A stretch of 49,322 nt of DNA. Origin: Promethearchaeota archaeon (lineage in GTDB: Archaea; Asgardarchaeota; Lokiarchaeia; Sigyniarchaeales; SOKP01). Within the stretch, counting starts at the first letter, position 1. Every line of letters starts with the position of its first letter. A program made the position numbers and the translations under genes. Shown piece by piece: positions 10,060-44,932 of this stretch. The stretch is from assembly GCA_016930515.1 (NCBI GenBank), contig JAFGGO010000182.1, positions 1 through 49,322 of the forward strand, in the 5' to 3' direction. A model generated the notes under the pieces. It made no database searches, was not told where the DNA came from, and saw only the letters and a list, made by a program, of their open reading frames with translations.

Positions 10060-11244
10060 CTATTTTAAAAATTCTTCAATTTCGTTGTATACCATTTCCA
10101 AGGTATCTAAATCGGGTAAAAAGGTGATTCGAATGTGGTCCTTACCGTAATTACCAAAACCCGATCCGTAGACCGTGCAAATTCCCGTTGTTCTAAGCAA
10201 ATCCACGACGAATTCCTTGTCATTGTTCCATTTCGGAAATTCTTTGAAATCGATTTTAGGAAAGAGGTAAAACGCCCCGTCGGCGTTTATAACACTCACG
10301 CCCTCAATTTGACGCAATCTCTTGTAGGAATAATCCCTGCGTTGTCTCAGTTTAACAACCATCTCGTCGGTGTGAGGGCCAGGATTTCTCAACGCTTCGA
10401 TGGCAGCGTATTGAGCAATTGAGTTTGCGCAAAGTCGCGCTCTTGCCATTTTAGCAATGTTTTCCTTAAGATCCTCGATTTTATTTTCAGGATCGTAGTA
10501 ATACAAATAGCCAAGCCGCCAGCCCGTTGCCAAGTGAGCCTTGGAAAAGCCGTTCATGCCAATTATGGGCACGTCCTTGCTATATGAGGCCGGACAAGAA
10601 TATTGCTTTTCGAAGACTATTTGATCGTATATCTCGTCTGAAATGACCACAAGATCGTGTTCTCCAGCGAGATCTATGATTTCCTTGACTTGCTTATTAC
10701 TAAATAAGCCTCCGGTGGGATTATTGGGAGTACCCATTAATATTGCCTTAGTTTTATCGGATATTTTACTCCTTAGATCGTCTATGTCTGGTTCCCACCC
10801 ATTTTCTTCGTCAAGTCGATATTCGACGGGCACGCCGTCGAAGAATTTCGAATAACTTATATACAAGGGATACGATGGTCCAGGAACGAGTAGTTCGTCT
10901 CGATTTTCCAAGAGAGCTGACAATGAAAAAAAGATTGCTTCTGTAACACCTGAAGTAACTAAAATATCGTCAGTCGCAATATCAATGGAGTTCTTATTTC
11001 GCTCGTACTTGCAGATCTCCTCTCGAAGTTCTGGAATGCCTAGCGAATCCACATAAAAGTTTTGTCCATCTAAAGCGGCTCGAGCCATAGCGTTACAGAT
11101 ATACGCTGGCGTTTTGAAGTCGTATTTCACGGGATCTCCTATATTTAAGTGAATGACATTCTTTCCTTGCTTTTTAACCTCGTCAGCAATGACCGCAATG
11201 TCTCGAATGGGATATTCTAACTCGCGTAATCTCCGAGAAACCAT
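10060..11244 (-). CDS. PLP-dependent class I/II aminotransferase (alanine aminotransferase-like)
   Basis: LNIGDP, PNNPTG, SDEIYD, NGFSKAHLATGWRLG, GAFY, GSGFG. Confidence 0.92.
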   Translation of the reverse strand: MVSRRLRELEYPIRDIAVIADEVKKQGKNVIHLNIGDPVKYDFKTPAYICNAMARAALDGQNFYVDSLGIPELREEICKYERNKNSIDIATDDILVTSGVTEAIFFSLSALLENRDELLVPGPSYPLYISYSKFFDGVPVEYRLDEENGWEPDIDDLRSKISDKTKAILMGTPNNPTGGLFSNKQVKEIIDLAGEHDLVVISDEIYDQIVFEKQYSCPASYSKDVPIIGMNGFSKAHLATGWRLGYLYYYDPENKIEDLKENIAKMARARLCANSIAQYAAIEALRNPGPHTDEMVVKLRQRRDYSYKRLRQIEGVSVINADGAFYLFPKIDFKEFPKWNNDKEFVVDLLRTTGICTVYGSGFGNYGKDHIRITFLPDLDTLEMVYNEIEEFLK

Positions 11245-11495: not shown

Positions 11496-12878
11496 TTGAT
11501 GGTTTATTTTGAAATAAAAAATGTGGGGTTTAACTGCGATAAAGACAAGGATGCATGTCCAGAATACCCTGATTCGTGCGAAAAATGCGTGCTTGAGCGA
11601 TTGAAATCACTTGGATTCAAGTTCGATTCTCACATTAAGGTAATGGAAATGGATTCTGAGGAAAAGCGTCTTGAAATGTATCAAGAACAAATATGGCAAA
11701 AATTCTTGAACATCCTCAATATCAAACATATTATTATAATGGACAAGAACTCGGGAGTGCCAATCACAAATTACGCTGTATCTGAAGCGGGTATTGATGC
11801 AGGAATGCTGTCGGGATTCATCCAAGCGAATATCACCTTTTCCGAAAGATCAGGCAGCACAGATCAGCAAGATAGCGTGATAGATTATCATTTTTACCAC
11901 TTTCAATATAAAGATTTTAACATTTTACTCAAGAATGGTGAATTTTCGCGTGTTTGCTTGATACTCGACCATAAACCATCAAAAACATTAGAGTCAATCA
12001 CGCGAGAATTTGTAATTGACCTTGAGAAGAAATACGCCAGCGAATTTAAATCATTTCAAACAAGAAAAATATTAAACTTTCCTTTCTTGGAAGAATTTAT
12101 AATTGAGGGCTTTAGCGTGCAATTTCTTTTTCCAATGATTTTAACTCACACGATTCCTCCCGACGCCATGGAATCTATCAACGATAATAAAATAAAAAAC
12201 GCCGTTTTCAAGCTCGCAAAAGAGTTTCTTTCAAAAAAGCACTTTTTTTTCATCAATACCTTACTTAGTGAAATCAAAAAAATCATTGATGTCGAATCAA
12301 AAATAATAATATACGAAATATATCAACTTCTAAAAATGAGTGTCATGATTCCAACTACCATCGAGACCGTAGAGTCAAGCGTAAAGGAATTTGAAGAAAA
12401 GCGAGCTCGAAAAATTGCAAATAGTCACGTGATTTCTCACATTATATCTACGGAAAATTCAATCACTGCCTTAGACGAATTGAAAAAGGCTGCTAAGACC
12501 ATGGATCAAGACACTGCTAGAAAGCAAATGGAACAGTTCATAAAGAAGGGTAAAACCGCAGAAAGAAGTAAAATTTACAAAGAGGCACAAAAAGAATACG
12601 AAAAAGCCTTGTATCTCGCTACGGGATTTAATTTTAATGATGATATAGGGAAGATTTCGTTCATGATCCTCGAACTGGACAAGATCATTGGTGATATTGA
12701 GCTCGAATACGCAATTAATGCAGGTGAAACCGCTGAAAGAAAGAAGGATTTTATCGATAGCATCAGGCATTACAAGAAAGCAATCGCTATCTTAGAAAAA
12801 GATGTTGGGTCTGGAAGTTCCGAATCAAAGATTAAAAAATTGGAAAAAAAAATATCAAAATTACAGGATTTAATCTGA
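11496..12878 (+). CDS. Longin-like domain protein with an N-terminal Cys cluster, a winged-helix-like segment and C-terminal TPR/MIT-like repeats
   Basis: CDKDKDACPEYPDSCEKC; IKHIIIMDKNSGVPI...DAGMLSGFIQANITFS...FNILLKNGEFSRVCLIL; two helical repeats (GKTAERSKIYKEAQKEYEKAL, GETAERKKDFIDSIRHYKKAI). Confidence 0.7.
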   Translation: MMVYFEIKNVGFNCDKDKDACPEYPDSCEKCVLERLKSLGFKFDSHIKVMEMDSEEKRLEMYQEQIWQKFLNILNIKHIIIMDKNSGVPITNYAVSEAGIDAGMLSGFIQANITFSERSGSTDQQDSVIDYHFYHFQYKDFNILLKNGEFSRVCLILDHKPSKTLESITREFVIDLEKKYASEFKSFQTRKILNFPFLEEFIIEGFSVQFLFPMILTHTIPPDAMESINDNKIKNAVFKLAKEFLSKKHFFFINTLLSEIKKIIDVESKIIIYEIYQLLKMSVMIPTTIETVESSVKEFEEKRARKIANSHVISHIISTENSITALDELKKAAKTMDQDTARKQMEQFIKKGKTAERSKIYKEAQKEYEKALYLATGFNFNDDIGKISFMILELDKIIGDIELEYAINAGETAERKKDFIDSIRHYKKAIAILEKDVGSGSSESKIKKLEKKISKLQDLI

Positions 12879-12998
12879 TAATAATTTCAATACTCACGCT
12901 TTTTCTAAAAATGATATGATAATGATATAATCAACAAAAAAGTAAAAACAAAGAGATAAAATTAAATGACCAAGTTTTTATGATAATAACTAAAAGCA

Positions 12999-15900
12999 TT
13001 GAGTATAAATTTTGAGGGGTTGGACAATCGTTTGACGGTCGTTGAAAATAAAACTGCATATCCCTACATCACAACTTTTAAAAAAGAACCATTCAAATCC
13101 TTTGCATTAATGAAAAGAAAGGATATTGGGCATTTTTATTTCAGCGAATACGAGAGAGTAGTAAAAGTTTATAAATATTACAACGAAAATTTGTTAAAAG
13201 ATAAAATATTAAATCTTGAAAACATTTACTGGTTTCTCTTGCTTAGAAAATACCTTCGGGAGGATAAGCAAGAGCATTCAGACGAGATCTACGATTTTAT
13301 AATCAAATGCGAGGTTATTTTAGGCGATAAGATAGGGTTCAAATTCTCTCCATCCTCAAAACAAAAATATCCCGATATATGGTCCACATATTTTGCCTTA
13401 GCAAGTTTAAAATTATTAGGTGCACTTAAGGTCTATCTCAGCCCAAAAGGAAAGCTGAATGTGAGGAAAGCTATATTAGAGTTCATTGATTCACACAAAA
13501 CTGGACATGGATATCTTCATTGCCTGGATAAGGATTGTCCAATTGACAAGAAAACTTCCGTCGTGAGGACTCTATACTTTATTCTTGACGCGTTAATATT
13601 ATTAGGTGTAGATGTACGAGCAAATAAAGAAGAATTTAGCGAAATAATTGGAGATTTAAAAAAGGATCCAACGATCGTTTTCAAACTGCTCTGTTCAAAG
13701 TTCATCGAAACGGACATCAATATAAGAGATAAAGAAATTCAATATTTATATTCTTATCAAAGAGAAAACAAGGGATTTAGTTTTAAAAAAGTTGAGGGTC
13801 AGATAAATACAACTTTTTGGGTCGTCTACGCTCTTAATAATTACTCGTGGATTTTAGATTATAATCCGATGGGAATATATTCGTTCATAAATGCTAAATT
13901 TCAAGATATCCTTGTTGCCGAACTAAATCCTATAAAGTTAATGGAACTTTCGAAATTAGCGATCTTATTTTCGATAATTTGGGAAAAATTCATCCAAGAA
14001 ATCGAAAGAGTCTTATTCAAGCAATTAGAACAGGAAAAATATGTTGATTTAAATCAAATAAAAAATACTTTTGGACTTGTTCATGGAATCGAAGAAGTTA
14101 TATCGTTCATTAATCTTAATTATACTTTTAATCTAAGGATTTTAGACAATCGAGTTGAATTTAAAAATTTTATCAGAAATTTGGGTAAGGGATTGCAATC
14201 TATTGCTAGGGAATTTTACGATAGACTGAGTAACAATAGTATAGTTTCTCTTTCAGATATATCCAAGAGGTACAAGTCAAGTTATTATCCTGAGAATGTT
14301 AAACTAAGAGAGGACGTGCTACCAATGATAAGAGATTTAGCAAGACGAAATTTCTTCAAGGGCACTATTCGCTCGAAGAGAAAACCAATAAAAAAGAAAT
14401 ACTTGTTCTACTTGAATTTTTTCTTGGAAAAAATTATCGTGTCCGACACTGAAATAAACTTGGAGCAATTACTAAGCGAAAAAGAAAAGCTCAAGGACCA
14501 TAAAAACACCATTTACAACATGATCTTGAAATTAAAGACCGCCACTAATAAAACGAGAGAAGAAATAGAAAGTTACCTCTTAATCGACGAAATTGACATT
14601 GCTAAGGAAAGAATCAGGTATTTAATTCACAACACGCTCATGGACGCCGAATTTTTGAACGAGAACATTGAACTATCGTTTAGCGAGGATTTATATTATA
14701 TTAACCTCCAAAAAGCGCTTGAGCCAGAAATTAACGCTTGGAAAAAGCAATATTCCGTGTTAAAAAGCAAGTTAAGAGACTTGGAACTTAATTTACAGGC
14801 AAGAATTGAAGAAAAGGAAGAAATCAGGAGCATTACGAAGATCCTTAATAGTTTAAAGGAAAAAATCTCGAACATAGAGGTTGATATACATAACAAAATT
14901 GAAAAATTCAGGTCATATTTCAGGGAGACCCTTGAAACAGAGTATAGCGACGAGATTTTTAACCTTCTCACCCGGGAGTTCGAAAAGATTTCTCAAAGAG
15001 TGCAAAGATACGATAATATCATCTATAGGGTCTCGCAACAAATCCAAACTCGAGAAGGGAAACTAAAACGCAAGCATAAAAAGATCATTGATAAGTGGAT
15101 CACCATCAAGCAAGAGTTTGACGAGATTTTCGGGTATTATACCGATGGTTTTGAATTTTTTCACAAAAGCATTAACGAAATTGAAGAAATTCGAAACACT
15201 ATCCGTATTGAATTCTCTGAGATTGGAAAAAAGATAAATCAACAAATAGCAGAAAACGAATACGAGATAAAAATCATTTTAGACGCCATTAAAAAAGAAA
15301 CGGATGCAATTTTAAGTGAAAAAATGAACAAGATTAAAGATTTACAGAAAACATTCAAAAAAGAGATAAAATCAAAACAGAAGTTGTACTTACTTTATAG
15401 ATATTTACCAGAAAAATTAGATGCTTTAGAAGAAGATATATTGGAACTAATGGCGCAACAAGTTCAACTTTTAAAAAATAAAGCCCTTGAAGAGAGAAAG
15501 AGAGCAAAAACGGAGGATTTCGACAATTTCGTAAACCAAGAGATGGCAAACCTGAAAACAAAAACAATTTCGTTTAATAATTATTTAAACCAACTAAAAA
15601 GTATCAGAATAAAGGATGTGAACAAGGGAGTTGAGAAGCTACAAAAACAACTTGAAGAAGCAAACCAACTATACAAGGCAAAATTAAACGAAGGTATCGC
15701 AGAAATTAGCGATTTCGAAGAAAAGTCAAATGTTACAATCATTCAATGGGAAAATTTTAAAGTTTATTTTTACAACGAAATTGAGAACTTAAAAAACGAA
15801 AGAATTAATACCATCATTACTAACAAGATAAAAGCTGTTTCATTAGAGAAAAAGACGAATAATATAGACATTAACGAACTTAAAAAGGAACTTAATCTTA

Positions 15901-17426
15901 ACTGCAAGGTTTTACTAACGCGCATACGTGAAATGATTGAGATATCCCAGATAAGCGCAAAACTTTACGAAGATAAGAAATGTTTGTTATTACATACGGA
16001 TCATTTTTACAAGAACGAGGATCTCAAGAATCACATCGATAACAAGATTTTAAAACCGAATAACGAGGCAATTGGTAAAATTTTAGCGTTATACGATTCA
16101 AGCATAAAAAATAAGACATTAGGCATCAATACTTTAGAGCTTAAGAATAGGATACAGGATTTGAGAGATTTTGAGAAATTTTCAAAGGAACAATTCTCAA
16201 AAAAAATCGAAGAGTTAGAAATTGATAGAACCAGATCAGATTATAAAAGAACGAAAAAATATTTCAAGGAGACTCTAGAAAATCAAAGCAAGGCCCTTAA
16301 GAATATCAAGGATTCCTTAATATTTTTTATTGAAACGAAAGATTTTATTTTCAAGGAATTTAACAAATTAAGCGTGGATCTAAAACAAAATTTTGAAAAC
16401 ATCGCAGAGGATAAAGAAAAAATTGATGAAGATTTTCAGGGTAAGGTAAAGCGATTCGATTTAAAACATAGGGACATAATAGAAAAAATAGAGATAGAAT
16501 TAAAAGAATCTTTAAGTAAAAACTATGAAATTGGAAAATTAAACCCTGAAATTAGAGAATTTTATGTCCAGACGAAAAACGAATTCCAAAGAGAATACGA
16601 AAACAAGATAGAAAAATTAAAAGAGCAAGTGTTTAACATCAAAAACGACTCGTTCAGAGAGGACTTCCTCAATTACTTAAACGAAAACAAGATACAACTT
16701 AGTCAGTTACTTGGAAATCTTGAAAGAAGTGTTGAGGACGATGTGGAAGTGAAGTTTTACAAGAGAGCGTATCTGAAAATCGATAAAAGAGTAAAGCGTA
16801 TCGAAAACGAGATAAAAGATAAGACTAAAAGCTTAAAAAACTATGTTAAAAAAGCAACAAAAAAGTCAAAGGATTTCGAAACTAGGAACAAGTATCTAAT
16901 CGATGATTTCGGCCAATTCCTCCAGAAATTCTGGGAGATACTAGGAGAAAAAGTTAAACAATTAGAACAATTGATAATTAAATCCTATATTGAAACAACA
17001 ATAAATGCCGTGGCAAACGGATTTCTTACTACGAGTTTTTTAAACGAAGAACTTAAGATAAAAAAAAAAAACATCCAAGAAGCCATAATTATCCTTATTA
17101 GTAATGGAGAGCTTGAAGGTAAATACGACATTCGATTAGGAATTTATTACGAGGATCCTGAGATTCTCAACAATATAAACGAAGAGGAGCTCGAAGTAAT
17201 CAAGAAAATGCCTTTTAAATTTTACATGTTTATCACACATTTAAAAAGTTTCACGGGACAATACGCCTCGATCATCGCCATGTTCGCTTCTGTGTTGACG
17301 ATAACATATACTTTATTTGCCATTACTGGTAATTTATTTATTGCGCTAATACCTTTTACTGTTATAATAATACTTCTTAGCTATGCGTGGTATAAGAAGA
17401 AGAAAGAAGCAAAAATAAAAATCTAA
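12999..17426 (+). CDS. 1475-aa protein: prenyltransferase/squalene-cyclase-repeat barrel, winged-helix (PCI-like) domains, long coiled coils, two C-terminal TM helices
   Basis: Repeats DEIYDFIIKCE..GF..PDIWSTYFALASLKLLG and IQYLYSYQRENKGFS..GQINTTFWVVYAL; PCI-like FLNEELKIKKKNIQEAIIILISNGELEGKYD; E/K-rich heptads; hydrophobic hairpin followed by KKKK. Confidence 0.7.
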   Translation: MSINFEGLDNRLTVVENKTAYPYITTFKKEPFKSFALMKRKDIGHFYFSEYERVVKVYKYYNENLLKDKILNLENIYWFLLLRKYLREDKQEHSDEIYDFIIKCEVILGDKIGFKFSPSSKQKYPDIWSTYFALASLKLLGALKVYLSPKGKLNVRKAILEFIDSHKTGHGYLHCLDKDCPIDKKTSVVRTLYFILDALILLGVDVRANKEEFSEIIGDLKKDPTIVFKLLCSKFIETDINIRDKEIQYLYSYQRENKGFSFKKVEGQINTTFWVVYALNNYSWILDYNPMGIYSFINAKFQDILVAELNPIKLMELSKLAILFSIIWEKFIQEIERVLFKQLEQEKYVDLNQIKNTFGLVHGIEEVISFINLNYTFNLRILDNRVEFKNFIRNLGKGLQSIAREFYDRLSNNSIVSLSDISKRYKSSYYPENVKLREDVLPMIRDLARRNFFKGTIRSKRKPIKKKYLFYLNFFLEKIIVSDTEINLEQLLSEKEKLKDHKNTIYNMILKLKTATNKTREEIESYLLIDEIDIAKERIRYLIHNTLMDAEFLNENIELSFSEDLYYINLQKALEPEINAWKKQYSVLKSKLRDLELNLQARIEEKEEIRSITKILNSLKEKISNIEVDIHNKIEKFRSYFRETLETEYSDEIFNLLTREFEKISQRVQRYDNIIYRVSQQIQTREGKLKRKHKKIIDKWITIKQEFDEIFGYYTDGFEFFHKSINEIEEIRNTIRIEFSEIGKKINQQIAENEYEIKIILDAIKKETDAILSEKMNKIKDLQKTFKKEIKSKQKLYLLYRYLPEKLDALEEDILELMAQQVQLLKNKALEERKRAKTEDFDNFVNQEMANLKTKTISFNNYLNQLKSIRIKDVNKGVEKLQKQLEEANQLYKAKLNEGIAEISDFEEKSNVTIIQWENFKVYFYNEIENLKNERINTIITNKIKAVSLEKKTNNIDINELKKELNLNCKVLLTRIREMIEISQISAKLYEDKKCLLLHTDHFYKNEDLKNHIDNKILKPNNEAIGKILALYDSSIKNKTLGINTLELKNRIQDLRDFEKFSKEQFSKKIEELEIDRTRSDYKRTKKYFKETLENQSKALKNIKDSLIFFIETKDFIFKEFNKLSVDLKQNFENIAEDKEKIDEDFQGKVKRFDLKHRDIIEKIEIELKESLSKNYEIGKLNPEIREFYVQTKNEFQREYENKIEKLKEQVFNIKNDSFREDFLNYLNENKIQLSQLLGNLERSVEDDVEVKFYKRAYLKIDKRVKRIENEIKDKTKSLKNYVKKATKKSKDFETRNKYLIDDFGQFLQKFWEILGEKVKQLEQLIIKSYIETTINAVANGFLTTSFLNEELKIKKKNIQEAIIILISNGELEGKYDIRLGIYYEDPEILNNINEEELEVIKKMPFKFYMFITHLKSFTGQYASIIAMFASVLTITYTLFAITGNLFIALIPFTVIIILLSYAWYKKKKEAKIKI

Positions 17427-17457
17427 TCTAAAAATACCTGATAAAATTTATAAATGA

Positions 17458-17964
17458 CTACATACACCTTTTTATTTCCTCGAGCCTTCTCATTCTCCTA
17501 TTAGCTCTTCGCTTGTAATGTCTTTCGATCTGGTCGATCATCAGGAGTTTAACATTTAAAGGTTTTCGATTCACGATTTCTTGTAAGTCATTAGAGAAGG
17601 ATTTAACTTTCTTAAATTCTTTAACCAAGTGCTTGTTTTTGATAAGGTAATGAAACGAGGAATTAAATTTTTTGACTATGGATTTTACAGTCATTCTAAT
17701 TAATTCGTGACTAGCGTCTGGGTCGCTCACTGCCACGATAAAAAGGTTTTGATCTGATAATTCAAAAATTATTTTTCGGCTTCTGAATTGAATGAATTCG
17801 ATGTCCTCAGAAAATGCTTCTTTGGTGAAACTGCGAATAGCCGCCAAGAAGCTCGATATGAGCTGCGTGTCTTTTAAAGACCACTTCACATAATTTTCCT
17901 CGAAGAAACACAAGCCACTATCAATGTCCATTATCCATAATCCATCTATTAGAAATTCATTCAT
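17458..17964 (-). CDS. Stand-alone longin-like protein
   Basis: IDGLWIMDIDSGLCFF...DTQLISSFLAAIRSFTKE...IEFIQFRSRKIIF...FIVAVSD. Confidence 0.7.
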   Translation of the reverse strand: MNEFLIDGLWIMDIDSGLCFFEENYVKWSLKDTQLISSFLAAIRSFTKEAFSEDIEFIQFRSRKIIFELSDQNLFIVAVSDPDASHELIRMTVKSIVKKFNSSFHYLIKNKHLVKEFKKVKSFSNDLQEIVNRKPLNVKLLMIDQIERHYKRRANRRMRRLEEIKRCM

Positions 17965-18150: not shown

Positions 18151-20280
18151 TTAATCAAAGGTTTTTAAAAATCGGATTTTATTCCCTTCTTTCTGGAGGA
18201 ATCCCAAATAGCACGCTTGGTTCAAATGAGTATAAAATTTTTTCTCAACTAGATCCTCCTCCTCTGCAAGTCCTTCTAATTTTGATATTTCAATGGATCC
18301 TTTGTTGGAATATATATCCACGAGATTAATCAATGTTTTTATATTGTTATTTATATATTTTTTTGGTTGTTTTGTTTCTTTTTTCAAATTTTTGCACTTC
18401 ATTTTTTGTATTTTTTTCGCTAAACTCATACGATCGAGCTTTATCACCTCAGAATAAAGCGTTATGCCAAATTTTTTTAATTGCCTTAAATATTGACTTT
18501 CTTTAAATTCGTCAAGTTCCGAAATTATTGTCTCGATTGAGCGATTTGTTAACAAATCTTTTTCTTTTTCTTTTATAGCCCTATATTTATTTAAAATTTC
18601 AAATTCAGAAATCTTATTCTTTGCCGAAAAGCTAATCTGTTTTCGAGGAACAGATTTGATTAATTTAAGTTTATCAGGTGAAGCTAAAACATCTTGCATT
18701 TGGTTTTCTTTTCTTACAGCAACCTTATGAAATGGTACATCAACCGTATTTTCGGTAATTAATATGAAACACCTTCCATAGTTAAAACGGCCAGTCCTTC
18801 CCCTTCTTTGAATTGTTCTGATTTCAGAAGGAACGGGTTCGTAAAAGATTATCGAATCCACGCTTGGAATATCTAAACCTTCCTCAGCAACGCTAGTGGC
18901 AATTAAAACATCAATCTTTCCTTCCTTAAATTCTTTTATAATCTCAATTTGTTTGACTTGAGAATACCCCACATCTCCATCTGCTTTAGATTGTTGACCA
19001 ATGAATTTTTCTATAACGAGTTCGTCTGCAAATTCATTTTTAAGTTTTGTTTTTAATAATTCTGCCATTTCGCGATATTGGGTAAATATCAATACTTTTT
19101 TGTTCCTCTTGAGATTTATCTCGTCTTGAACGATAGAAACGACTTTTTTAAGTTTTGGGTGCTCTAAATTTTCATTTTTCCCTTCATCGTGAAAACAAGT
19201 AATAAGTTTGAAATGCTCCGAATTTGCTATTCTTTCGGCAGATCTTACTCCTTGAGCTGCACGAGATGCTATTTTTTCTAAAAAAGACATGAATAGCGAT
19301 ACATCTTGAGTTTCTAGGAGATCTTTTGCGTGTAATATGGATATACAACTCGCACAATAAGAAAAAATCGATTGGATGTTCAATTTTTTTTCTCGAACAA
19401 TCTCTAGGATTGTTGGAGATTGAAAGTATAATGTTTCAAGATTTGAATTATCGGATTGTAAGCAAACAGTGAGGTCGCGTGTTATCTTCAAGAAGTCCAA
19501 TTTGGAATGATAATTTTTTGAAGGATTAATTAATCCTCTCTCGATAAAAAATCTTAGAAACTTATGAAATAAGTGGTTCCATATTTCGCAGATCTCTATC
19601 ATCCTAAGCGGTAAATCTACGATTTCTAGTATCTCTTCTATATCTTGTATATAATTCTTTATATCTTCGTCTTGACGTGTCTTAAATACAATATTTTCTA
19701 TGAGCAAGTTGTTACAAATTATTTGGATTTGTTCTTGATCTCTTCCGGGAGATGCTGTCAAACCTAAAACAATAGGATCAGAACAATCTTCGAAATATTT
19801 TCGCGAAACGAAAGTATAGGCATAATTTTTTTTGGATCTATGAGCTTCGTCAAAAATAATCAATGAAACTTCTTTTAAATCATATCTATCTCTTTCTAGA
19901 TCGTTTTTAATTACTTGAGGTGTTGAAATTATGATTCTTGAATTATGAAAAAACATCATTCTTTTTTCTGGAGGTGTTCTACCTGTAAGAGTAACAATTT
20001 GTTTTTGTTCAACATCGAGGAATTTATAAAGCGAGTCGTAGTGCTGATATATAAGGGGTTTTGTAGGAGCTAGCAATAATATCTTAGCATTTTTATATTT
20101 TTTTAAATAACGACTCACGAGTAAGACGGCTATGATTGTCTTTCCTAAACCAGTTGGAAGCACGACTAGGGAATTTTTATCAAAACACGAATTAACGATA
20201 TTTAATTGATATTTTCGATGGAGGATAGTGTCTTGCTTTAGAAATGGTCCATTAACATATTTAGAAATTACACCATCCAT
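18151..20280 (-). CDS. hef: Hef/FANCM/Mph1-family SF2 helicase
   Basis: RKYQ, LPTGLGKT, FDEAHR, GLTASPG, HPKL, IFTQYR, ATSVAEEGLDIP, IQRRGRTGR; no ERCC4 nuclease motif seen. Confidence 0.88.
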   Translation of the reverse strand: MDGVISKYVNGPFLKQDTILHRKYQLNIVNSCFDKNSLVVLPTGLGKTIIAVLLVSRYLKKYKNAKILLLAPTKPLIYQHYDSLYKFLDVEQKQIVTLTGRTPPEKRMMFFHNSRIIISTPQVIKNDLERDRYDLKEVSLIIFDEAHRSKKNYAYTFVSRKYFEDCSDPIVLGLTASPGRDQEQIQIICNNLLIENIVFKTRQDEDIKNYIQDIEEILEIVDLPLRMIEICEIWNHLFHKFLRFFIERGLINPSKNYHSKLDFLKITRDLTVCLQSDNSNLETLYFQSPTILEIVREKKLNIQSIFSYCASCISILHAKDLLETQDVSLFMSFLEKIASRAAQGVRSAERIANSEHFKLITCFHDEGKNENLEHPKLKKVVSIVQDEINLKRNKKVLIFTQYREMAELLKTKLKNEFADELVIEKFIGQQSKADGDVGYSQVKQIEIIKEFKEGKIDVLIATSVAEEGLDIPSVDSIIFYEPVPSEIRTIQRRGRTGRFNYGRCFILITENTVDVPFHKVAVRKENQMQDVLASPDKLKLIKSVPRKQISFSAKNKISEFEILNKYRAIKEKEKDLLTNRSIETIISELDEFKESQYLRQLKKFGITLYSEVIKLDRMSLAKKIQKMKCKNLKKETKQPKKYINNNIKTLINLVDIYSNKGSIEISKLEGLAEEEDLVEKKFYTHLNQACYLGFLQKEGNKIRFLKTFD

Positions 20281-24546: not shown

Positions 24547-27500
24547 TTATTCTTCAGGGATTGTTACCGAAATAATGCCCATTTCGAAAAATTCTCCTCT
24601 CCTTGTACCATCAACGAAGAGTTCGCATTTATAATTGAGGAGAAGGTCGTTCTGAGTACAATTCAAGTACGCGGAGAATCCTTGAAGTTCACCTGGGTGT
24701 AGCGTTGCGTTGAATAAGGTAAAAGTAATGCTATAGCCATCATTATATGTTGTAGTAAAATTACTAATGGAGGCAAGACCCAATAACTTGATATTGTTTG
24801 GATCATTTAGCGATTCGGAATATATCGTAAGATTGAGTACGATTTGGTAACCGGGATTGTCAATGTTATCGTCAATGTTCTCTAATGAATAGTGAAATTT
24901 AGCGTAATCGTTCGTATTGTTTGCGGGATATGAAATTACTGACTCCATGGAAAAATCAAAATCAATAAAGATCGGCGAAGTAATGTTTACTCTAAGTAAA
25001 TTCGAAAAAACCTGACCATAATCGTTGTAAGCTCTTAACCTGTAATAAAAAGTTCCATTGTGATTCTCGTTAATATAATAGCTTGTTGTGGTTAATCCCA
25101 CGGCAATTGGTTCCAAGCCCGTTATATCTGTAATTGGTTCAGTTGAATTATATAACTCGTAATATTCCGCCTTGATTGAAGTTGTCCAATTCAAGTAAAA
25201 CGCACCGTCTCCGTCGCTGAAGTTGGAATTAATGAAATTAAATGCACTAGGAGGTCCAATATTGAGCGAATTATAAGCTTCAGAAATGTTCCCACCAACC
25301 CCAAGGTCTCCGGTAATTGCGTTTACAAGCCCCACTCTCGAGAGGCTTTGGAGATCTTCTTGCACAGTAGCGTATACAGGGACATAATAATATAAAGAAT
25401 CTCCCATTGGATAAATCAATGTATTACCTAATCTATAGGGTTCTATGAGATTAAGCTTGTCCTTATCTGTCGCTTCGTAGGTATCCCTGGCTGTTTTTGG
25501 ACCAATTAATGTTGCTTCTGACTCACGAACGCTATAAAATATGATTTCCCCAAAATGCGTTCCATGTCTCACGACATAAAATCCCGCTAGACGGCGCGCT
25601 TGTTGACCGTAATATTCAACCAAGTCCATTCCAACATATTCAATGCCATTGCCTAAATCGGTTTCTACATAGAATAAATCTCCATTTTCAGGTCGCTCAT
25701 GAAAGTCGTCTCCCCTCTTCCAAGTAGTTGGATTCGTCACGTGATATTTATAATACGCTTCTAATTGCAGCTCAAACAGCGATTCGGGGTATCGAAGTTG
25801 CGACGCCAACCATTCGGGTGCATTTTGCCAATTGTAATTTCTCATATAAGCCTTCCAGAGATTGTAGGTAGGATCGGATGTTGATTCGACCAGAGCAGGG
25901 TTTTTATAAAAATTCATGACTCCATCCAAGACATCAACCAAACAAACGCCTAAGAAACGATAAATGGGTGTTTGAGAATAAGATCCTACGAAAATCGAGG
26001 TGTATATCGACGCCGCATAGTACATTTTTCCTTCAGCCATATTGAAGACCAGATAAGGATCGTAATCTATTTCTAGACCGGGCATTAGAATTGCGTTCAC
26101 CCTCGTTTTAATGTTTCGATTGATAAGGTATTCTTGTGTTGGTTCATAGGCATATGTTAAAAGCCCTAAATTAGTCGTAAACCACCACGCTTCCAAACCA
26201 GAAAGAACGCCGTCAGGTGCCCCTTCATAATTATATTCGTTAAAAGGACTTCCACGCCAATCCGTTCCCAGAAGAATGTCTGGATCGTACGCCCCCGTGC
26301 TCGTTTGCCGCTCGTGTTCTCCAAAAAAAATTGGATATTTTTCCGAAATATTAAACACTTCAGTGACATTAACAATTTTTCCCGAAGATGTTTCCATCGC
26401 CAAGAAACCTTCCACGTGATCGTATAATTCGGTATGAATTTGCGTTGGATCGCTTTCAAGTTCGCTCCATTTTATGGTTTTGGGGGCAACCCAGTATTCA
26501 GTTCCGTTTATGTAGACGATATCAGAGTCCGCGAGCCCTTCGAAAGTTGTGCCAATAACTACCGCAAAACGAGGGATGGCGTATCCTTGATCGTATTGCC
26601 GAATTTGAGAGAGAATCTCCAAATCTGATGTACTAGTCGAGTCGGTATAGTTTTGAATGGAAAGTTCTTCGAAAGTGTCCAATCCAGCACAGGATTGCGT
26701 CCAAGTAATTTGTCGCAAAAATCCCTTGTTCCACGCTAGGTCGTTCCAAGTAGCCGTGTTGTTTAAGTTCACATAAGATGGAATGCTGTAAAATAGTGGA
26801 AAAAACCCAATAAATAATACGAGTGCCATTGGTATGGCAATCCGTTTTGCTTCCCTTTTTGTAATCTTATAGTTTCTCCTATCTTTTCTTACTTTATGCT
26901 TACCAAATGCATAAACCGCTAGACCAAACAGCATGAATCCAATGAAAAAAACGATGATGGAATAACTCTGAATTAGTTCCAAACCGTTTAAGGAATATGT
27001 AGGAAGAGCAAAGAAGATGAGTCCAAAGATTAGACCAACAATCATTACTGCATTTGAAATCACATTGTAATCGTTCCTTCTCAAATAGAGGTTGCTTGCG
27101 ATATTTATAGTCGCTCGAAATAAAAGAACACCAATTACGAAATATATCAAGGGAAGAATGATATTTGAATATACAAAGATCGTTTCAATGCCGATTACGG
27201 TTGGATTAAATAAAACATTAAATGAATCAAAGATAATTGTAAATTGAAATTGTAGTTCTCCCGTTTCTATCAAATACATGGCCCACGCAAAATTATTTTC
27301 AGTATTGATAAAATATCCAAATAAATAAAAAATAAAAAATCCAATTGACCACCAAAATATCAAGCATTTTAAAGTAGATGGTTTACCGAATCTTAATTTT
27401 GTCCCAATTATTGTCAATAAATTCCTATTTGGAGGTAAACTCATGAGAAGACTTCCAATGATTGCGGTCATTAGACATGTTTTATTGAAGAAGAAGTTAG

Positions 27501-27909
27501 TTGACCACATGTTTAAGAAATATACTTGTCCGTAATCCAATCCGCCCGCTTTATTTGAATATAATTGTGTATTTAAGTTAATAGGGCCGTACCAATTTGG
27601 CCAGAACCACACGAGACTTAATATTGTGAAAAGGATGATTATAAATGGTACAATGATTTTTGCATATTTCCTAATCTTTCTTTTATTAAATCTTAGATTG
27701 GAATCTGCTACTTTTACATACTTATATCGCCCCTCATCGTCCTCTTGTTTCTCAGGCCTGGGGGAAGGGACTTCCTTCTCTTTTGTTTCGTCGTAATCGG
27801 GATATAGGCGCTTATTTTCTGCGCTTTTAGCAAACTCTTTTGCCGCTTCCCGGCAATCCTTACAACTATAGTGAAATCGCGAATGTTTTTCGCAGTGTTT
27901 ATCTACCAT
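24547..27909 (-). CDS. UPF0182-family membrane protein with an N-terminal Zn-knuckle-like motif and a C-terminal FN3-like domain
   Basis: Multi-TM N-half; IDYDPYLV, QLRYPESLFELQ, YHVT, RLGNTLIYP, YYVPVY; LNWT...YYYRLRAYNDYG. Confidence 0.8.
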   Translation of the reverse strand: MVDKHCEKHSRFHYSCKDCREAAKEFAKSAENKRLYPDYDETKEKEVPSPRPEKQEDDEGRYKYVKVADSNLRFNKRKIRKYAKIIVPFIIILFTILSLVWFWPNWYGPINLNTQLYSNKAGGLDYGQVYFLNMWSTNFFFNKTCLMTAIIGSLLMSLPPNRNLLTIIGTKLRFGKPSTLKCLIFWWSIGFFIFYLFGYFINTENNFAWAMYLIETGELQFQFTIIFDSFNVLFNPTVIGIETIFVYSNIILPLIYFVIGVLLFRATINIASNLYLRRNDYNVISNAVMIVGLIFGLIFFALPTYSLNGLELIQSYSIIVFFIGFMLFGLAVYAFGKHKVRKDRRNYKITKREAKRIAIPMALVLFIGFFPLFYSIPSYVNLNNTATWNDLAWNKGFLRQITWTQSCAGLDTFEELSIQNYTDSTSTSDLEILSQIRQYDQGYAIPRFAVVIGTTFEGLADSDIVYINGTEYWVAPKTIKWSELESDPTQIHTELYDHVEGFLAMETSSGKIVNVTEVFNISEKYPIFFGEHERQTSTGAYDPDILLGTDWRGSPFNEYNYEGAPDGVLSGLEAWWFTTNLGLLTYAYEPTQEYLINRNIKTRVNAILMPGLEIDYDPYLVFNMAEGKMYYAASIYTSIFVGSYSQTPIYRFLGVCLVDVLDGVMNFYKNPALVESTSDPTYNLWKAYMRNYNWQNAPEWLASQLRYPESLFELQLEAYYKYHVTNPTTWKRGDDFHERPENGDLFYVETDLGNGIEYVGMDLVEYYGQQARRLAGFYVVRHGTHFGEIIFYSVRESEATLIGPKTARDTYEATDKDKLNLIEPYRLGNTLIYPMGDSLYYYVPVYATVQEDLQSLSRVGLVNAITGDLGVGGNISEAYNSLNIGPPSAFNFINSNFSDGDGAFYLNWTTSIKAEYYELYNSTEPITDITGLEPIAVGLTTTSYYINENHNGTFYYRLRAYNDYGQVFSNLLRVNITSPIFIDFDFSMESVISYPANNTNDYAKFHYSLENIDDNIDNPGYQIVLNLTIYSESLNDPNNIKLLGLASISNFTTTYNDGYSITFTLFNATLHPGELQGFSAYLNCTQNDLLLNYKCELFVDGTRRGEFFEMGIISVTIPEE

Positions 27910-44301: not shown

Positions 44302-44823
44302 TTACTTGTTGTTTTTCATTATACTGTGAATTAATTCAGTGAACACTTCTTCGATGTTATAGCCAGTTTTAGCAGATGTGAACAAATGAATCCCGATATT
44401 TAGCGTTTTCAAGATATTATCGATACTTTCTGCATCGATTGGTTTATCATCACTAAGATCTATTTTATTACCAACCACGATAAAAGAGATTTGTTCAATA
44501 TTGTTGATAATTTTATTGATCTCGTTGTTCCAAAGGATAAGGTTATTAAATGTTTCCCTTCTGGCAATATCATAGACTAGAACACATCCACTGGATTTTT
44601 TTAGGATAGTATTAAGTACCTTATTGTTAGGATATCGAGCTCCACATAAATCCCAAAAATTCAAAGTGTATTTATTTTTGTCAACTTTAATCGTTAGCAC
44701 GGTGTAATCCACTCCAACTGTTATCATTTGAGATTCGTGAAATTTATTGAGCATATATCTTTTTAAAATTGAAGTTTTTCCAACAGCACCATCTCCAATG
44801 ATGATAATCTTAAGATTTTTTAT
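44302..44823 (-). CDS. Rab-like small GTPase
   Basis: G1 GDGAVGKTS, G2 TVGVDY, G3 WDLCG, G4 NKID, G5 SAK. Start is ATA 44823 or TTG 44841. Confidence 0.88.
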   Translation of the reverse strand: MKNLKIIIIGDGAVGKTSILKRYMLNKFHESQMITVGVDYTVLTIKVDKNKYTLNFWDLCGARYPNNKVLNTILKKSSGCVLVYDIARRETFNNLILWNNEINKIINNIEQISFIVVGNKIDLSDDKPIDAESIDNILKTLNIGIHLFTSAKTGYNIEEVFTELIHSIMKNNK

Positions 44824-44932
44824 TATTTTACACCATCTCAAGTTAAACGAAAAAGCATATTTTTACAGAATGTTCTATGGTTTTACTGTAATATTTGTTT
44901 GAAATTTAAAAGAAAGAAGGTATAATTATAAT

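Follow-up and report, generated by a model that had tools for sequence, protein, structure and literature searches.

Do three neighboring genes in a Lokiarchaeia genome, two encoding longin proteins and one a very large membrane protein, work as a module, or did two longin genes come to flank an older gene that acts without them? The genes lie in a window of 49,322 nucleotides (nt), the whole stretch of DNA that we analyzed, taken from the forward strand of contig JAFGGO010000182.1 (assembly GCA_016930515.1; Promethearchaeota archaeon; Lokiarchaeia, Sigyniarchaeales, SOKP01); its own genome is labeled G000. Gene A, a longin gene of 460 amino acids (aa), occupies positions 11496 to 12878 of the plus strand. 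After 120 nt, it is followed on the same strand by a 1475-aa gene that we call giant (12999 to 17426), and a second longin gene, C (168 aa), lies on the minus strand (17458 to 17964), convergent with giant, with 31 nt between the two stop codons. Homologs carry the names Promethearchaeota or Lokiarchaeota. An initial annotation of this DNA had the open reading frame (ORF) coordinates, the orientations, and the 31-nt gap right; it proposed that the genes may form a membrane-associated scaffold at a tethering/trafficking locus, with giant as a golgin-like coiled coil. We lean toward a different reading of the whole, in which the longin neighbors are incidental and giant is a cortical spacer or linker rod.

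Two start sites deserve comment. Gene A more likely begins at ATG 11499, giving a protein of ∼459 aa, since its relatives begin with MVYF, and the start of giant, annotated at TTG 12999, may be TTG 13020, judging from promoter spacing and the lengths of its orthologs.

Longin genes adjoin giant within a single genus

Among the Lokiarchaeia searched, giant is essentially single-copy in most genomes. It is present in 54 of 61 related genomes, including all 26 of high quality, and a profile search found it in 53 of 55 genomes of the same family. Outside Lokiarchaeia, the giant profile gave only short partial matches in the genomes sampled. The family is compact: of 1.8 billion representatives, 165 belong to it.

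G000, G004, and G005 have the A-giant-C order in full, and G001 and G002 have it in two halves. It recurs in three more assemblies, whose giant is 61 to 63% identical; it occurs only where giant is at least 60% identical. A adjoins giant, co-oriented with it, in all five other genus members searched, and only some members of the genus have C at this site: in the closest species, G003, giant is followed by an amidase gene in place of C. Synteny across Asgard genomes had been chosen beforehand as one check on a conserved module, and the neighborhood was not conserved outside the genus. No longin adjoins giant at any of 34 loci outside the genus or at any of 4 further loci whose giant is 49 to 53% identical. 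Among those 34 loci, a Hef-like helicase is a neighbor in 22 and an aminotransferase in 11, and unrelated genes occupy both flanking gaps of giant in other genera. The window retains both of these older neighbors on the minus strand, an aminotransferase class I/II gene upstream (10060 to 11244) and, convergent downstream, a DEAD/DEAH helicase gene (18151 to 20280) that we take to be Hef-like from its domain layout. The two longin genes lie in the gaps of an older aminotransferase-giant-Hef block. The helicase stays convergent to giant at its 22 loci, which span two families, while most neighbors change.

The longin genes themselves were followed in the same way. At 20 A loci and 14 C-family loci elsewhere, the neighbors change and never include giant. 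A is a genus-specific neighbor, whose orthologs are located elsewhere in other genera: in G028 an A ortholog lies 420 kb from giant on the same contig, and in G021 an A homolog lies 275 kb from giant. With the query used, full-length A was not found in 13 of 36 genomes of the same family, of which eight have a completeness of 96% or more. Nor was it found in the 14 genomes of a second family, most of which carry giant. Family f4 has A-like genes, and giant was not found in its genomes, which are 63 to 88% complete. Pattern scans of metagenome and genome collections returned three loci.

How surprising is a double longin flank? Longin-like ORFs number 45 among the 3642 of G000; about 0.5 doubly longin-flanked genes are expected per genome, and one, giant, was observed, which barely exceeds chance. 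The chance of double flanking is 1.5e-4 for a gene named in advance, but giant was picked after the fact. Where a genome holds dozens of longin genes, as in these archaea, lying next to one is weak functional evidence. Because the triple is limited to one genus, the locus is probably not a trafficking module, and the gene adjacency is quite probably nonfunctional.

Transcription signals are consistent with an independent giant gene. A promoter-like element, consisting of an A-rich box, ∼6 nt, and a T-rich box, lies upstream of giant (12958 to 12981, plus strand) and is found in much of the family, including loci without an upstream longin gene. A matrix trained only on six loci from other genera, none of them with A, gave the window site a higher score than any of 442 control upstream regions, so that the promoter of giant was probably retained when A arrived. 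A transcript shared with C is impossible, C being convergent. A sigma-70 promoter/terminator scan was set aside as uninformative for an archaeon.

Giant is predicted to be a membrane-anchored, jointed rod

What, then, is giant? The initial annotation described a coiled coil, and neither the structural models nor Pfam bear this out. They point to a prenyltransferase-like head, four winged helices, and seven three-helix bundles, all overlooked before, followed by a membrane hairpin. We hold this predicted architecture with high confidence. All of its features lie on the plus strand.

The head (residues 46 to 330; 13134 to 13988) is modeled as a full six-hairpin alpha/alpha barrel, or toroid, with a predicted local distance difference test score (pLDDT) of 92. 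It matched Pfam family PF00432 (E 7e-8), and its profile matched the RabGGTase beta subunit (E 3e-11), as did its model in a VIA structure search (Z 22.6, root mean square deviation [rmsd] 2.9, 258 residues aligned, 16% identity). Protein-prenyltransferase beta subunits scored Z of ∼22 and terpene cyclases no more than 16. The head thus shares its barrel with the prenyltransferase beta subunits (RabGGTase/GGTase-III, GGTase-I, and FTase; PF00432), whereas their catalytic D-x-C...H zinc ligands are not found in it. With the register set by repeat order against the RabGGTase sequence rather than by superposition, Cys occurred in the D-x-C register in 0 of 68 rows (D in 19 of 68, then N, D, or E), and the last repeat (repeat 6) had no conserved His in the same rows. 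Giant has instead its own H-C-x4-C-x2-C/D insert (13518 to 13547), as well as a rod of 1100 residues and a membrane anchor that the beta subunits do not have. Within the insert, H174 is kept in 66 of 68 rows, C175 and C180 in 65 each, and position 183 is C in 48; this conservation suggests a probable structural zinc site. An F-W pair and a P-D motif are also strongly conserved in the head. No TPR-like alpha subunit partner was identified. Toroids labeled ribophorin II were among the Atlas rows; ribophorin II was not among the VIA matches listed, which does not exclude it. That the prenyltransferase beta subunit has archaeal homologs has been mentioned in a general way (PMC4915359), and the structural closeness of the giant head to the eukaryotic beta subunits bears on an origin that is debated (PMC4915359, PMC4917890).

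Two further G000 proteins, encoded at C130:20625-21722 (365 aa) and C76:14695-17976 (1093 aa), are prenyltransferase-like toroids with N-terminal hydrophobic segments and no D-x-C; they are probably exported.

Behind the head, winged helices 1 and 2 stand in tandem (residues 333 to 484; 13995 to 14450; model pLDDT 92) and match each other as well as winged helix 3. Winged helices 3 (residues 938 to 999; 15810 to 15995) and 4 (residues 1326 to 1387; 16974 to 17159) are PCI-type by profile, and in the model they come after spectrin-type bundles, not after a solenoid. PF01399 (PCI) was matched in the stalks of 38 of 44 orthologs at E values up to 0.5 (best, 1e-9), and winged helix 3 matched UFL1/DDRGK1 in VIA (Z 9.5, rmsd 1.6, 59 residues aligned). 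Tandem winged helices also occur in ESCRT-II (Vps22/25/36); those of giant gave no EAP30 match, and no ESCRT genes were recognized in the neighborhoods examined. Proteins of ∼460 aa from another Asgard family (G097:C6:557760-558128, G105:C35:1347-1712, and G078:C105:2320-2661) match only the tandem winged helices of giant, with E values from 1e-9 to 1e-11.

The winged helices divide a stalk of spectrin-type three-helix repeats, a term that we use as defined in PMC4243239, with ∼5 nm per repeat. Repeats 1 to 4 span residues 488 to 937 (14460 to 15809), and repeats 5 to 7 span residues 1001 to 1325 (15999 to 16973). In the stalk model (pLDDT 83), long helices of 52 to 73 residues alternate with short ones of ∼30, as in three-helix bundles strung together by helices that run on from one to the next. 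Internal repeats measure 105 to 120 aa, and their profiles matched one another with probabilities up to 93, versus no more than 18 for reversed controls, several pairs remaining at background. When the stalk was searched against 48,161 chains in VIA, the top match was to beta2-spectrin repeats 14 to 16 (Z 14.3, rmsd 8.2, 302 residues aligned), followed by alpha-spectrin 15 to 17 (Z 13.5) and plectin (13.2), with nesprin-2G and the alpha-actinin rod lower. A Z of ∼13 can arise between unrelated bundles, and we therefore take the spectrin match as likeness, not descent. A multirepeat alignment to spectrins suggests that the helix connectivity may be left-handed, as in spectrin and unlike EzrA. 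Foldseek returned no row for the stalk at E 0.001 or better, and an ESM Atlas feature search with it gave no usable match. Over the G000 proteins, the spectrin family PF00435 gave weak matches on SMC-like proteins and none on giant.

The protein ends in a two-helix transmembrane hairpin and a lysine-rich tail (17265 to 17411). Hydropathy places the hairpin, at about residues 1423 to 1471, and the basic tail in all complete orthologs, and the model has the corresponding helices; the membrane anchor that had been claimed for giant is thus borne out. From the positive-inside rule and the lack of a signal peptide, the N-terminal body is predicted to be cytoplasmic. One ortholog, L049:7405-11868 in G055, has an open frame of 1487 codons, of which the first ATG/GTG/TTG would give only 1331 aa; an in-frame ATA stands at its second codon. 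Its start is likely nonstandard, and database models may miss part of its head.

Giant is predicted to resemble known linkers in layout

Spectrin-repeat linkers (nesprins, plakins, and alpha-actinin/spectrin) share with giant the tandem bundles of ∼105 to 120 aa joined by continuous helices, and nesprins additionally share a C-terminal membrane anchor and an N-terminal globular head. Unlike these linkers, giant has no PF00435 signature, and neither a calponin-homology domain (none in a Pfam scan) nor a KASH domain was found in it; its rod is broken by PCI-type winged helices, its anchor has two helices, and its head is prenyltransferase-like.

Another similar protein is EzrA, a spectrin-like scaffold of the bacterial divisome, which like giant is prokaryotic, membrane anchored, and built of serial three-helix repeats without sequence homology to spectrin (PMC4243239). 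It differs in having five repeats and no toroid or winged helices, and it may differ in its helix connectivity, which is reversed. EzrA was not among the 50 VIA matches listed for the stalk, which does not exclude it. The EzrA anchor is N terminal.

The golgin analogy does not hold for the fold. Golgins capture vesicles and bind Rab/Arf/Arl GTPases. Golgins such as giantin, golgin-84, and CASP are, like giant, long, mostly helical, cytoplasmic, and anchored at the C terminus, and they form an extended parallel dimeric coil, whereas giant is modeled, as a monomer, with spectrin-type bundles folded back on themselves, a globular head, and four winged helices. Its host lineage, moreover, has almost no internal compartments. 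PCI proteins and UFL1/DDRGK1 share PCI-type winged helices with giant; DDRGK1 is also membrane anchored. PCI complexes join a helical-repeat solenoid to a single C-terminal winged helix, whereas giant has several, far apart and placed after spectrin-type bundles. Overall, giant would work like a nesprin- or EzrA-type linker, yet it fails the sequence tests for membership among spectrins, prenyltransferases, or golgins.

Our literature search found no description of the giant protein or of spectrin-like repeats in Asgard archaea; catalog supplements lay outside that search, so that a table entry is possible.

A and C belong to a large, shuffled longin repertoire

C (17458 to 17964, minus strand) is a stand-alone longin with a basic helical tail, as initially annotated: Fuz_longin_1 was matched in 6 of 20 relatives, with a best E value of 6e-7. 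For A, the earlier assignment of longin, winged helix, and TPR/MIT domains held for the first and last. The longin-like domain (residues 72 to 211; 11709 to 12128, plus strand, as for all features of A) matches the C family profile to profile with a probability of 89.6, and PF04212 (MIT) was matched in 16 of 26 relatives (best E 2e-5), corresponding to tandem MIT/TPR-like units at residues ∼340 to 397 and 398 to 460 (12513 to 12875) that match one another with a probability of 83. The probable winged helix (residues 225 to 292; 12168 to 12371) is read from a sequence pattern and gave no significant database match. A Cys4 cluster, C-x6-C-x6-C-x2-C (C14, C21, C28, and C31; 11535 to 11588), had been overlooked; it is invariant in all 26 aligned relatives and is a probable metal site. 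Searched as separate alignments, the winged helix and longin of A returned no significant known family, and an ESM Atlas feature search with A returned only one Promethearchaeota cluster. The longin folds of A and C, of the kind found in the GTPase platforms Mon1-Ccz1 and TRAPP, were assigned from profiles.

Iterative profile searches seeded with A or with C reach the same 44 to 45 proteins, and a rough tree places the two in different longin groups. The 45 longin ORFs of G000 compare with 41 longin domains reported for Loki (PMC10933270). As far as the parts of the literature on Asgard multidomain longin proteins that we consulted go (PMC10936438; 10.1101/2020.10.19.343400), A and C fit the expanded, patchy, domain-shuffled Lokiarchaeia repertoire, and the exact order Cys4-longin-winged helix-tandem MIT does not appear in those parts.

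In G000, the A longin subfamily forms the C-terminal cytoplasmic tails of single-pass membrane proteins. Three such proteins, G000:C130:5551-10272, C119:3772-6108, and C119:6215-8566 (1573, 778, and 783 aa), have tails with an A-type longin(+winged-helix) module and are likelier partners of A than giant is.

Soluble paralogs of giant carry a longin

One link between giant and longins lies outside the locus. Soluble paralogs of giant in G000 (contig C161), G021, G034, and several Helarchaeota fuse the head, winged helices, and repeats to a C-terminal longin, which replaces the membrane hairpin of giant. This longin is the second-best non-self match of the A longin profile in G000 (E 1e-17), and in a rough tree it is the sister group of the A subfamily with support of 94/81, just under the tool's mark. 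The simplest inference from these sequences is that such a rod can be docked at the membrane by a longin instead. The longin-ended paralogs would thereby link the giant family to longins generally, and to the neighbors A and C only weakly. In a complex prediction, the giant head with winged helices 1 and 2 scored 0.00 with A, which is no evidence either way.

The G000 paralog (G000:C161:19251-22961; L062) has 1236 aa and no hairpin. It and two others (L060 and L061) lie 4 to 8 kb from a cluster with a gelsolin-like gene, recognized by eye, a coiled-coil gene, and small membrane-protein genes. A third subfamily (L059:7784-11494; P0148, P0164, P0189, and P0197; ∼1230 to 1280 aa, two of them named Helarchaeota) has the head and rod and neither hairpin nor longin.

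A proposed cortical linker with probably incidental longin neighbors

The reading that we modestly favor starts from what sequences and models show: the order of the domains and their folds, their conservation, the lost catalytic residues, and a gene order confined to one genus. Two members of an abundant, mobile longin family would have come to flank an older gene that is transcribed on its own; this arrangement would most likely date from the ancestor of the genus. The terminal helical hairpin would fix giant in the cell membrane with its body in the cytoplasm. Seven spectrin-type bundles, in groups of three and four hinged by PCI-type winged helices, would make a jointed rod, the repeats reaching up to ∼35 nm. 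The barrel that this rod carries, prenyltransferase-like and noncatalytic, would bind a protein tail or an isoprenoid, and the winged helices would serve as docking or self-assembly surfaces. Giant might then act as a nesprin- or EzrA-like cortical spacer or linker that keeps some cytoplasmic structure a fixed distance away from the cell's single membrane, a role that we regard as somewhat more probable than not. Vesicle tethering is less likely, because cultured "Ca. L. ossiferum" showed internal compartments on just two occasions (PMC9834061). The functional interpretation first offered for the locus is thus partly supported, in that an elongated, anchored giant suits a membrane-associated scaffold and synteny speaks against a three-gene tethering/trafficking locus, and the observations behind it are partly confirmed. 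As a link between the actin cytoskeleton and other contents of Asgard cells and their wall-less, protrusion-forming membrane, a class-wide, single-copy, anchored rod of spectrin type would be a concrete candidate.

Several observations weigh against this reading. The stalk model is a monomer with a predicted template modeling score of 0.37, and unrelated helical bundles can score close to its Z of 13 to 14. PF00435 was not matched in giant at E values up to 10, it is absent from the families listed for 44 orthologs, and no spectrin match appeared among PDB sequences. On the side of the neighbors, A is co-oriented with giant and lies 120 nt upstream; the triple has persisted among several species of the genus that share just ∼60% protein identity, so the arrangement is old within the genus; and the soluble paralogs have a longin related to that of A fused to the very domains that giant has.

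Could the longins matter after all? That all three genes form one membrane-tethering/trafficking module, in which A and C would pair as a longin heterodimer and control a small GTPase at a tether of golgin type, is very unlikely. Longin dimers are indeed GTPase platforms (PMC10933270), giant is the only G000 gene flanked on both sides by longins, and the order persists, whole in three genomes, as halves in two, and in three further assemblies. Synteny nevertheless appears largely to refute such a module, since none of the 34 loci outside the genus has it, and C is convergent and not at the site in G003. In addition, A and C sit in different longin groups, the window has no small GTPase gene closer than 26 kb, the stalk is not golgin-like, and GTPase genes of MK-D1 lie mostly outside operons with longins (PMC10933270). 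A narrower link, in which A alone docks on giant and uses its tandem MIT units to recruit ESCRT-III-like polymers, their adjacency mirroring the partnership fused in the paralogs, is doubtful rather than negligible. It would draw on the longin that stands in the paralogs where giant has its hairpin, on the kinship of that longin with A (E 1e-17; sister group, 94/81), and on the co-oriented A adjoining giant in all five other genus members searched. Against it stand the genomes in which only one of the two genes was found (no A with the query used in 13 of 36 genomes of the same family or in the 14 of the second, most with giant; A-like genes in family f4, where giant was not found in genomes 63 to 88% complete), the wide use of the A longin subfamily as a C-terminal module of membrane proteins, and the promoter-like element that giant has for itself.

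Other alternatives concern giant itself. It is rather unlikely to be a membrane-anchored quality-control scaffold of PCI or UFL1/DDRGK1 type, whose winged-helix ring or clamp would bring ribosomes, ligases, or proteasomes to the membrane. The PCI matches in 38 of 44 orthologs (best E 1e-9), the fit of winged helix 3 to UFL1/DDRGK1 (rmsd 1.6 over 59 residues), and top Foldseek rows of COP9, proteasome-lid, and eIF3 subunits, none reaching E 0.001, would suit such a scaffold, and ubiquitin-related systems are known in Asgard archaea, as are UFL1-like domains (10.1101/2020.10.19.343400). However, hundreds of residues of spectrin-type rod separate the winged helices, unlike in either complex; the DDRGK1 sequence matches are weak (E 0.03 to 0.06); and no ubiquitin-system genes were recognized in the neighborhoods examined. 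An active or carrier isoprenoid enzyme in the head, for prenyl transfer or other lipid chemistry and held near the membrane by the rod, seems improbable: although prenyltransferase beta subunits (Z ∼22) score well above terpene cyclases (Z up to 16) and the F-W pair, P-D motif, and H-C-C-C site, all conserved, are candidates for lining a pocket, the D-x-C register, placed by repeat order in 68 rows, is variable and never has Cys, the last repeat lacks a conserved His, and a long stalk would presumably keep the enzyme away from a membrane substrate. We consider it highly improbable that giant uses DNA-binding winged helices to anchor the chromosome or the replication/repair machinery at the membrane, an idea that the Hef-like neighbor, adjacent or near in 22 of 34 loci in two families, and the presence of four winged helices might suggest. 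The helicase is convergent and so not cotranscribed, other genes often lie between it and giant, the loci counted are kin rather than independent, and the winged helices match protein-binding PCI profiles, not those of transcription factors. Bolder, and unlikely as a whole, is that giant belongs to a Lokiarchaeia membrane skeleton with true spectrin-type repeats, as a nesprin-like linker of a cytoplasmic structure (Lokiactin filaments, ribosome chains, or the chromosome) through its prenyltransferase-derived head, with a longin as the alternative docking end and with adaptors like A coupling the scaffold to ESCRT-III. Set against these, a cortical spacer or linker flanked by incidental longins remains the reading toward which we incline.

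Other genes in the window

The window holds a third longin gene (706 to 1926), whose 406-aa product has some four hydrophobic helices in its N-terminal part and a longin in its C-terminal part (residues 272 to 403) and gave no Pfam match. The small GTPase gene nearest to the locus in the window (44302 to 44841) encodes a Rab/Ras-like protein of 179 aa. A protein of 1120 aa (24547 to 27909) matches UPF0182 (E 6e-16).

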